A stretch of DNA of 64,000 nt from Neophaeotheca triangularis. Lineage: Eukaryota. The notes beneath the pieces are model-generated. The model had not been told where the DNA came from, searched no databases, and saw only the letters and a list, made by a program, of their open reading frames with translations. Position numbers and translations under genes: made by a program. Below are positions 43,028 through 45,926 of this stretch, in pieces. The stretch covers positions 1 to 64,000 of the forward strand of contig BAAIJX010000012.1 in assembly GCA_054600435.1 (NCBI GenBank), in the 5' to 3' direction. Numbering within the stretch: position 1 is the stretch's first letter; each line of letters opens with the position of its first letter.

Positions 43028-43486
43028 CGATTTATACGCAAAAGCGCCGCCGTTAGAAGAAACGTCCGAAACGCAGCCCTGGAGATGCATGGCTGTTCAC
43101 TTCGCCTGACTTCTAAGGCATCAACTGCGGATATGAACACGCTAGCGCGCAAGGGCACGTGCTTACCAGGCACCTAAAATTCGAGTTCCGCAAATTCAAC
43201 TTCAACTTCATCGCTTCACCACCACTTCCATCAACAACACCACCGTGGTGACCACGTTTGGCTTCTTGCCGCTTTCAACCACTCACTTGAGCGCCTCCAG
43301 TCTCAACACACTCTGCTGCTGTCTCTCGACGGGCCCACAGGACATGTTGTAGCAGGCAGTATGGAGACACGACGTTCAACACCCTCTTGTCCACTTGCAC
43401 CGTGAGGTGTACTTTGTCGACGAGACTAGCTCTTGCAAAGGTATGTCTACACCCGATCCCTCCCGCCAACTCCAGCCACGCTCCCA

Positions 43487-43564
43487 AGGATGTCAAAACT
43501 TTACACGAACAATCCAATTCCTATAGCGTCATGCAGGACTTTACAATCTCTAGAATTACACTGA
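43487..43564 (+). ncRNA. Box C/D snoRNA, U45/SNORD45-like (18S Am, human A159-equivalent)
   Basis: Variant C box AGGATGT; D box CTGA 43561-43564 preceded by CTCTAGAATTAC, antisense to conserved 18S GUAAUUCUAGAG. Confidence 0.78.
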
Positions 43565-43750
43565 GACCGAGCATCCATCACAAGTCCTTGCGCTTCCATG
43601 GCCTTTTCAACCTTGCTAACTTGATAGCTCAGGAAACACAACACTTCCTTGTCAATTTTTCGCTGCTTCCGTGGACGGTCACTCTTCAATCTAGCATGAC
43701 TTGAAAAGGTATGCCTAACACCCTCTTCCATTCCCCTCACCTGCCCTTTT

Positions 43751-43836
43751 GTGATGAAACTTTGACAAGAATTGGCATTCCTCGATCCAAAAATACAATG
43801 TGGATTTTGTCTTTTATAAGTTTCAGCCTTGTCTGA
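43751..43836 (+). ncRNA. snR41: Box C/D snoRNA snR41 (18S Gm1126, yeast numbering)
   Basis: C box GTGATGA; 15-nt guide TAAGTTTCAGCCTTG antisense to 18S CAAGGCUGAAACUUA before CTGA 43833-43836; D+5 rule gives G. Confidence 0.88.
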
Positions 43837-43954
43837 TTCGACATCCCGTCACATACATCTCGCCGGATCATCAACATGAAGAGCCTTTCACTAATAGACT
43901 CTTCAGGTACATTAAGTCCCTTTCAAAGCCTGCCGGCACTCGTAGCCATGTTAC

Positions 43955-44088
43955 ATGATGAGACCTCCGAACGCGTCGGGCGGACAGAGCGCATAGCACA
44001 CCCCTCATCGGAGCATCCATCAAAGCGGGACGTACAAATCCTGCGGGTGTTTTGGTGAGGGAGTGGCTGTTGAGAAAGCGTTGTCTGA
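43955..44088 (+). ncRNA. snR70: Box C/D snoRNA snR70 (18S Cm1639, yeast numbering)
   Basis: C box ATGATGA; D' guide GCGtCGGGCGG-A-CAGA antisense to 18S CCGCCCGUCGC (1 mismatch); extra GTACAAA complement; D box 44085-44088. The snR41-snR70-snR51 order matches the yeast cluster. Confidence 0.8.
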
Positions 44089-44217
44089 TCTAGTCGGCGG
44101 AGTCCAGCTGGCGAGTGTGCATACATGCTGCTGAATAAGTGCTGACATGATCGATAGGTACTGCCATCACTATCCCCTTCCCACTGCCATAGGCCCCCGG
44201 CAACGGCCATCTCTGCA

Positions 44218-44378
44218 ATGATGAACAACTATTCACACTGTTTGAACCAACTTTCGTTGTAACGAGCGGAAGCGGTTATGAACGTACAAAATACACTGAA
44301 AATTCTGATTTAATGAGGTATGTTGGATCCAGACTTGAGACCGTTCCCAAAACTTGTGCTGACCATGTGATAGCCTGA
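44218..44378 (+). ncRNA. snR51: Box C/D snoRNA snR51 (25S Um2729 and 18S Am100, yeast numbering), interrupted by intron 44318-44373
   Basis: C box ATGATGA; D' guide TATTCACACTG-T-TTGA (25S CAGUGUGAAUA); D guide CTGATTTAATGAG|C-CTGA (18S GCUCAUUAAAUCAG), completed only after splicing. Confidence 0.88.
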
Positions 44379-44535
44379 TCGCAGAGAAGAACAACACGCA
44401 GCTGTTATTACCAAACGTTGCCGAGTGTGTAGCTAATGCGAAGACACACTACAGGTCATTGCCATGCCACGACAGCATTGGATTCGATAGAATGAGTGAG
44501 TTTTATCGTCTTGCACTTCTCCCTTTCCCCTTCAA

Positions 44536-44612
44536 ATGATGTCAACCTTTTTATCTTAGCGGATTCCACTGCAATTACATTGAAGACCCTTCACGAAAAT
44601 CAAAATCTCTGA
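44536..44612 (+). ncRNA. Box C/D snoRNA with two 25S guides (family unassigned)
   Basis: C box ATGATGT; guide CTTAGCGGATTCC (25S GGAAUCCGCUAAG); C' TTGAAGA; guide GAAAATCAAAATC-T-CTGA (25S GAUUUUGAUUUUC). Confidence 0.78.
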
Positions 44613-44764
44613 CGCCGAGGCATCTTGACTGCGATTCATCGCTCGTTTGTCATGACGGACAATGCTAACGACTCCGTCTCAGGCCTGCATAACTGCGCGC
44701 TTACCCCAGTAAGACACCTGCATCCGGTACGTTCATTCCTACTTGGAGCTTTCCCCACCACTGC

Positions 44765-44855
44765 ACGATGAACAAACAAACAATTTTGCTGTGTTCTTTC
44801 CGAGTGTGCTTCGGTACTCGTTGAAGATACAAACTATTTCACCTTGGAGAACTGA
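44765..44855 (+). ncRNA. Box C/D snoRNA, U24/snR24-like (25S Cm1437) with a D' guide to 5.8S rRNA
   Basis: C box ACGATGA; D guide TTCACCTTGGAGA-A-CTGA (25S UCUCCAAGGUGAA); D' guide TTTGCTGTGTTCTT-T-CCGA (5.8S AAGAACGCAGCGAA, with G-U pairs); hairpin between D' and C' (TTGAAGA). Confidence 0.82.
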
Positions 44856-45926
44856 TAGACCCCCTCTCGCTGCACTATACCGATGTATGCAAGACGTTGG
44901 TTGGCTTCGTACTGACTTTGATTCAAAGGGCGCCTTTTGGCTTGTCGTTATCTTTTCATCAGTTAACCTTTGCTGTCTCCTTTGACAGCGATGGGCTGGA
45001 GAAGAGGTGTCGGAATGACTTCGTTTGCTTCGACAGCGGATCGCGAAGCTTCGAGTCTCATGAGACTTGTCTGCCGTACATTGGAGGCATTTGCAGCTAA
45101 TGAGGCATCGCAACAGAACTGCATCAATGGTGTACATCGCGAGTGCCACGCCCGAAAGCAATGACATTCCTTCCTTTTCACACGCTAGGCATCTAGACAT
45201 TATTCGTTCACACGCCATCTAGCTCAATGCCCTCCCGGCAGCCAATCATCGAAATCATCCCAAAAAAGCATTTCAAAAAAGAACCCATCACCGTGAACCA
45301 ATTCAGCCTTGTAAAAAAGTCGTACCAGCGTTAAACTACACGTATTCTCCCGAAAGACAAAAACGGCCGAGTGCGACACCCCAACGGAGCCCTTATCATC
45401 GCAAGAGCCAAGCACCGGGCCCAATGTAGCATGTAGGATATTAAGAAACCCTCAATGTCGCGCGCCGCAATGTACATACGTACTCGGACAGCATTCCAGT
45501 AGTCCTGGCACTCCTTGCTGGCCCATCCGTCCGTCCGTCCGTCCTGTTTCAATTGCCCGTGTATGTACATATTTCCCTGACCATGCAGGGCAAAGCCTTT
45601 GCACACATATACCGCCTCTGCTTGCCCCGTGGCTATCCATCCATCCATCCATCCCTCCATCCGCAAGTCTGTCTTCCCTTCCGATTGAAAACTCGCCCAT
45701 TCCGACTTGCGCCATGTCCCGTTCATCAGCCCTCATGCATGCATGCATGCGTGGCAAGCTCGTTCGCAAGCAGAAAACAAACGTCTACGCCTGTACGCCC
45801 CTGTCGTTGTTGGAATAAGACACTTGCCTTACAAGACCGAAAAATACCAGTGTGCCCCTTCCACCATTATCCTGCCCTGCGGCACCCAAGGCCATCTACC
45901 CAATGTCTGACGTCGGTCGCGTGCAC

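Follow-up and report, generated by a model that had tools for sequence, protein, structure and literature searches.

How can a box C/D snoRNA be made from a gene in which an antisense element and the box D that belongs to it lie on opposite sides of a 56-nt insertion? This question is raised by an snR51-like locus in the window, the 64-kb stretch of DNA analyzed here, in which all features described below are on the + strand. The sequence is best read as the snR51 orthologue of an snR41-snR70-snR51 host gene from a filamentous ascomycete. In this predicted arrangement snR51 is split by a small U2-type intron at 44318-44373, and the whole snR51 gene lies within 44158-44454. We put its probability at nearly nine in ten. 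The evidence consists of anatomy, conservation and co-variation, together with one host transcript that is spliced 5' to 3' up to the donor at 44158.

The host gene and the anatomy of snR51

The region from 43300 to 45000 holds a non-coding snoRNA host gene with several introns. Intron 1 (43441-43632; 192 nt, GT..AG) holds a putative C/D snoRNA, recognized from sequence only, with its D box CTGA at 43562-43565, and is followed by exon 2 (43633-43708). The next intron (43709-43907) carries Afu_455, a snR41-like snoRNA at 43747-43838 that matches Rfam RF01860 at 75.4 bits against a GA of 48. The CAG end of this intron adjoins the donor of a middle intron (43908-44157), which contains a long putative C/D snoRNA with box C at about 43956 and box D at 44085-44088. 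This RNA occupies the snR70 position, and by analogy with the cluster order described in PMC3596301 it is a putative snR70. The TAG end of the middle intron in turn adjoins the donor of the outer, or host, intron of snR51 (44158-44454), which has a GTACTG donor, a GCTAAT branch motif at 44432-44437 and a CAG acceptor at 44452-44454. The predicted remainder of the host gene (44455-44928) comprises a short exon, a snoRNA intron, an exon and the Afu_294 intron, with splice sites taken from the sequence. The predicted snoRNA intron carries a putative C/D snoRNA at 44531-44615, and Afu_294 is located at 44761-44858 (RF01506, 65.9 bits against a GA of 43).

At two places an acceptor AG directly abuts a donor GT, as CAG/GTACAT at 43905-43913 and TAG/GTACTG at 44155-44163. 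The AG/GT junctions at 43907/43908 and 44157/44158 indicate that the three snoRNA introns abut and that the interior exons have zero length. A manual count on the sequence gave a spacing from D box to branch A of 53-59 nt in all six snoRNAs of the cluster. This bears out the claim of the first-pass annotation that GCTAAT lies 53 nt past the snR51 D box, as for the other snoRNAs. The segments holding the middle-intron and intron 1 snoRNAs (43950-44090 and 43480-43568) gave no Rfam match at E ≤ 10. The putative snoRNA at 43480-43568 has a poor box C, and the one at 43950-44090 is ~140 nt long. The snR41/snR70 context of the window thus consists of a snR41-like 3' end in Afu_455 and a middle snoRNA that lacks an Rfam match; one orthologue (L053) has Rfam matches to both snR41 and snR70 beside its snR51.

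Host gene transcripts were sought in one public run (X1), a poly(A) metatranscriptome whose word share was 0.06, and region 43150-45150 was compared. The run yields a single 238-nt contig with a depth of 2.3. It covers 43298-43440, skips 43441-43632 with its GT..AG ends, and covers 43633-43708; the exon 2 piece aligns as 43631-43711. The contig then continues with GTA and 16 letters that match only 44161-44176 in the window, and it ends 19 nt into the snR51 intron. The X1 molecule therefore joins 43708 to 44158, which means that both abutting introns, the Afu_455 intron and the middle intron, were removed from it while the start of the snR51 intron was retained. The 43708/44158 joint agrees with the stepwise EST classes described in PMC3596301.

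In snR51, the 5' strand of a terminal stem, TCTCTGC (44210-44216), is a perfect 7-bp complement of GCAGAGA at 44381-44387, which forms the 3' strand. Box C (ATGATGA, 44218-44224) is supported by the sequence and the Rfam alignment. It is followed at 44229-44245 by a D' antisense element that contains ATTCACACTG and by the D' box TTGA (44242-44245), both aligned to the Rfam snR51 consensus. The U2729-type D' guide ATTCACACTGT aligns to the consensus of the snR51 model. A 25S-U2729-type target of the snR51 D' guide is named in PMC3938493, and in N. crassa it belongs to CD6 (PMC2780460). An internal hairpin with the apical loop TGTAACGA occupies 44251-44272, between D' and C'. The C' box is TATGAA in the window (44277-44282) and TGATGA in several orthologues. 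The next segment, 44293-44308, is a snR67-type antisense element ACACTGAAAATT (44293-44304) followed by an internal CTGA (D1, 44305-44308), assigned by its identity to Rfam snR67. The 18S-A100 antisense element begins with this same CTGA. Its first 13 nt are CTGATTTAATGAG (44305-44317), located by sequence and Rfam alignment, and a 14th would come from C44374, the nucleotide just before the CTGA at 44375-44378. The sequence and its orthologues identify this last CTGA as the predicted box D of the spliced snoRNA.

The 13-mer CTGATTTAATGAG occurs once in the 64-kb window, where 0.07 matches with at most one mismatch are expected by chance. It is separated from box D by the inner intron (44318-44373), which lies inside the host intron. 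This 56-nt element has a GTATGT donor, a GCTGAC branch motif at 44358-44363 and a TAG acceptor at 44371-44373; sequence, orthologues and PMC3596301 all support it. A GT donor, a CTRAY branch motif, a YAG/AAG acceptor and a fungal size give it the signals of a U2-type intron. The register between A100 guide and box D is absent from the genomic sequence and would become exact once 44318-44373 is removed. Joining 44317 to 44374 would make T44314 position 5 upstream of box D. The A100 DNAzyme arms in Table 1 of PMC3938493 match the window bases that flank T44314, which places this nucleotide opposite A100. The first-pass annotation had reported the guide, the inner donor, branch and acceptor, the D box and the outer signals at these positions, and all of them hold on the sequence, as does its prediction that splicing puts the D+5 nucleotide on A100.

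With the Rfam snR51 model (RF01214), segment 44214-44325 gives an alignment of 28.9 bits against a GA of 44. Both guides are aligned, and GTATG occupies the position of box D. Other Rfam matches at the locus were set aside. A snR54-like match (23.1 bits) was rejected as a guide because its bases are the 5' strand of the internal hairpin and it has a mismatch at position 3. This conserved hairpin explains the spurious match: 36 of the 88 distinct orthologues have the loop TGTAACGA or TGTAAACGA, and co-variation is seen in the stem (-9.2 versus -5.5 kcal/mol, 0 of 200 permutations), both among the matches listed. Matches to PCA3_2, Ms_IGR-2, sR60 and TtnuCD11 were far under threshold and were taken as noise.

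The inner intron and the choice of box D among orthologues

Public metagenome contigs were scanned for both snR51 guide cores separated by a 40-70-nt gap, which returned at least 117 loci. Only exact copies of both guides were accepted, which builds guide conservation into this set and leaves just the sequence outside the guides as evidence. With the window the set comprises at least 118 sequences, of which 113 were parsed and deduplicated to 88 distinct ones, 79 with the intron and 9 without. A comparison of snR51 across relatives had been proposed in the first-pass annotation, and here it shows that in 103 of 118 sequences among the matches listed a GT...AG intron occupies exactly this position and a single nucleotide separates it from box D. 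The rest of the 118 in this listing are 10 intronless sequences in which the nucleotide and box D follow directly, 4 contigs that end within the intron, and 1 sequence with a GC start (L060).

The inner intron is 46-68 nt long, with a median of 54, in the 79 distinct intron-bearing orthologues among the matches listed. Its interior is otherwise divergent between orthologues. In these 79, again among the matches listed, the donors are GTATGT (31), GTACGT (10), GTATGC (9), GTAAGT (7) and rarer GT variants. The branch motif [A/G]CT[A/G]A[C/T] is present in 78 and replaced by ATTGAC in the remaining one, and the acceptors are CAG (32), AAG (27) and TAG (20). The acceptor is followed by exactly one nucleotide and then box D in 79 of 79 distinct sequences among the matches listed. 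In the same listing that nucleotide is C in 63, G in 10, A in 5 and T in 1, and the box is CTGA in 78 and CCGA in one (L107).

Orthologue L060 has GCAAGC at the inner donor instead of GT, then TGCTGAC, TAG, and C plus CTGA; this probably represents the same intron in a GC-AG form. L087, on a 55-kb contig, resembles the intron-bearing L043 and L079. It lacks the inner intron and keeps the outer one, probably a lineage-specific precise loss.

The D box that is used was examined through the sequences that would form a terminal stem. In the 88 distinct orthologues among the matches listed, the 12 nt upstream of box C and the 14 nt after the downstream box D form a duplex with a mean of -6.4 kcal/mol. 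Permuted partners gave -3.3 ± 0.2 kcal/mol and 0 of 200 permutations reached -6.4 among the matches listed, a comparison that ignores relatedness and so shows pairing that differs between lineages, not a probability. The co-variation also holds in the 79 intron-bearing sequences and in both sub-classes of the matches listed. No pairing signal was detected between the box C flank and the inner intron, where 186 of 200 and 159 of 200 permutations were equally good among the matches listed. The outer branch A lies 57 nt after the D box in the window and 50-71 nt after it in 73 of 76 scorable orthologues among the matches listed; 3 of the 79 were left out of this scoring because they had too little downstream sequence or no motif.

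Rfam scores provided a control. The six intronless orthologues tested all pass the RF01214 GA with 46.3-65.3 bits. The window (28.9 bits) and the intron-bearing L002 (36.8 bits) both fall below it, and three other intron-bearing orthologues (L005, L028 and L048) gave no snR51 match at E ≤ 1. Since all six intronless orthologues tested pass, the low score of the window is attributed to the interruption. The terminal stem, the spacing of the outer branch and the Rfam control all point to the downstream box D as the one that would be used. Together with the conservation of the intron among the matches listed and the description in PMC3596301, they support the intron-within-intron reading that the first-pass annotation had put forward.

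Excision of the inner intron in this organism, its removal ahead of the outer intron with any regulatory role of that order, the mature size and the methylations are what we infer from this evidence. The spliceosome would remove the inner intron and join 44317 to 44374. Box D would then stand 1 nt after the guide, and the fifth upstream nucleotide, T44314, would face A100. The stem between 44210-44216 and 44381-44387 would close the box C/D kink-turn. Core proteins would bind, the outer intron would be excised, and exonucleases would trim the RNA to a snoRNA of ~120 nt that should also carry the 25S-U2729 guide at D'.

A putative second guide at the internal CTGA

An antisense element of its own precedes the internal CTGA. 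At 16 of 16 positions, segment 44293-44308 agrees with the Rfam snR67 consensus at its 3' end, and ACACTGAAAATT with the internal CTGA has the design of a 25S-U2724 guide, as judged by its letters. The match to snR67 as a whole (RF01177) is 23 bits against a GA of 55, and the D' region aligns poorly. Among the matches listed, 43 of 88 distinct orthologues share the 12-mer ACACTGAAAATT letter for letter between flanks that vary, and in 2 others it has a single changed base. For the snR51 family in the Onygenales and part of the Dothideomycetes, Canzler et al. (2018; PMC5824354) include 25S-2724 among the conserved targets of the D box. This assignment implies that those authors treated the internal CTGA as box D; the available passages of PMC5824354 do not mention an intron. 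N. crassa CD49 (PMC2780460) is a homologous case of the U2724 guide. The less-described point is that the U2724 guide overlaps both the internal CTGA and the A100 guide.

A gene built in this way might give two products, the spliced long form and a short snoRNA that ends just after the internal CTGA at 44305-44308, which would act as box D for U2724 with U2729 at D'. The short form could arise by splicing of donor 44158 to acceptor 44373, by removal of the outer intron before the inner one, or by 3' trimming with a kink-turn at the internal box. The A100:U2724 ratio would then be determined by which splice or which box is chosen. The snR67 identity, the 12-mer adjoining CTGA between varying flanks in 43 of the 88 listed orthologues, and the 25S-2724 assignment of Canzler et al. 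speak for this possibility. The spacing does so too. The internal CTGA is 53 nt from the inner branch A in the window and 44-63 nt from it across orthologues among the matches listed, so the outer donor with the inner acceptor could release a short snoRNA. The first-pass annotation had held that pairing 44158 with 44373 would destroy the snoRNA. This part of it did not stand, because the internal CTGA with its conserved antisense element would stay with box C in the lariat. A conserved snR67-type guide accompanies this upstream CTGA, so the snoRNA could survive the "wrong" pairing.

The spacing of this guide-bearing CTGA also runs counter to the preferred reading of a single spliced snoRNA, as does the 76-nt length of the N. 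crassa CD6 cDNA reported in PMC2780460, which fits an RNA ending at the internal CTGA and likewise favors two products. Against a second product, there is no co-varying stem between the box C flank and the sequence after the internal CTGA among the matches listed. The loci that bear the U2724 guide have the strongest stem to the downstream D flank (-8.9 versus -5.5 kcal/mol, 0 of 200 permutations, among the matches listed). The intronless orthologue L061 keeps the same tandem arrangement of U2724 guide and CTGA, which makes the extra guide independent of the intron. On balance we regard two products as possible and somewhat doubtful.

A related proposal is that about half of these fungi have an snR51 with three guides and a tandem pair of D boxes. 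The choice between U2724 and A100 would be made by the pairing around box C or, in intron-bearing species, by splice order. The internal CTGA would be both the box D for U2724 and the first four bases of the A100 guide, so the two activities would be mutually exclusive. We offer this tentatively and think it unlikely to be correct. If true, two sites of rRNA methylation would be under the control of a switch based on splice order.

Liu et al. (2009; PMC2780460) called N. crassa CD6 "exon-encoded", with a 76-nt cDNA and 26S-Um2687 as its sole target, and Table 1 of that paper, as available, contains no snoRNA that targets the A100 equivalent. Applied to the window, this would mean that only the short form is made, that 44318-44373 is an ordinary host intron, and that the A100 element and the downstream CTGA are a relic. 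Conservation of a single nucleotide plus box D behind the acceptor, seen in 79 of 79 distinct orthologues among the matches listed, is not what a relic would show. Neither the co-varying terminal stem beyond the downstream box nor an outer branch 50-71 nt after that box in 73 of 76 orthologues among the matches listed would be expected. A later paper by related authors (PMC3596301) recasts the locus as a nested intron. We therefore consider production of the short form alone very improbable. Chance resemblance, with splice-like signals that go unused and an RNA that retains 44318-44373 or a snoRNA that is non-functional, agrees with an X1 contig that ends before the inner intron, but it is hardly credible given a 13-mer expected 0.07 times in the window, splice signals kept in a divergent 46-68-nt stretch in 79 distinct orthologues among the matches listed, and a 56-nt insert between guide and box D that would break the D+5 rule.

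Relation to known systems

The split snR51 gene is a rare example of a spliceosomal intron, nested inside another intron, on which the function of a non-coding RNA depends. The inner intron also explains how covariance-model annotation can miss snR51 and its 18S-A100 guide in filamentous ascomycetes, as seen in the below-GA score of the window and in the N. crassa table without an A100 guide. A full-text literature search for snoRNA with "nested intron" gave Luo et al. (2013; PLoS One 8:e58547, PMC3596301) as the sole relevant work, and a search for RiboMeth-seq with Aspergillus snoRNA found nothing.

According to Luo et al., an intronic snR51 contains a non-snoRNA "intron B" between the antisense element and box D. 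They describe intron B in different Euascomycete species and conclude that it was gained once in an ancestor. Their cluster III, snR41-snR70-snR51, has lost two interior exons and has two extra snoRNA introns, and 42 ESTs fall into classes consistent with 5' to 3' intron removal. Zero-length interior exons are already described there, with citation of earlier Candida work. The window is like this cluster III in the position of the intron, the exon loss, the flanking snoRNA introns and the 5' to 3' splicing classes. It shows no essential difference from the published account and represents one more species. Neither the snR67-type guide at the internal CTGA nor the co-variation of the terminal stem is treated in the available text of PMC3596301. 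The nested-intron architecture is thus already known and has been in print since 2013, so the window adds breadth and no new principle.

S. cerevisiae snR51 (RF01214) shares with the window box C, the U2729-type D' guide, the A100 D guide and its register to box D. In yeast the gene is uninterrupted and sits in an unspliced polycistron (PMC3596301), whereas in the window splicing would be needed to set box D by the guide, and there is an extra U2724-type element. That element and its CTGA are the same 12 nt and box, in the 25S-U2724 register, as in snR67 (RF01177) and N. crassa CD49. Unlike snR67 and CD49, the window has the element inside snR51, it has no G2619-type D' guide, and its CTGA doubles as the start of the A100 guide.

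Stwintrons, the spliceosomal twin introns of filamentous fungi (PMC8469720), resemble the window in having one U2-type intron within another, with the internal one expected to be spliced out ahead of the external one. The inner intron of a stwintron breaks the donor, branch or acceptor of the outer one, whereas in the window the outer signals at 44158, 44432-44437 and 44452-44454 are intact and far from 44318-44373, and the inner intron breaks the snoRNA only. The U3 snoRNA genes of yeasts and N. crassa (PMC2780460) are also C/D snoRNA genes with a spliceosomal intron inside them. They differ from the window in being independently transcribed and not nested in a host intron, and U3 does not guide methylation with a guide-to-box spacing that depends on splicing.
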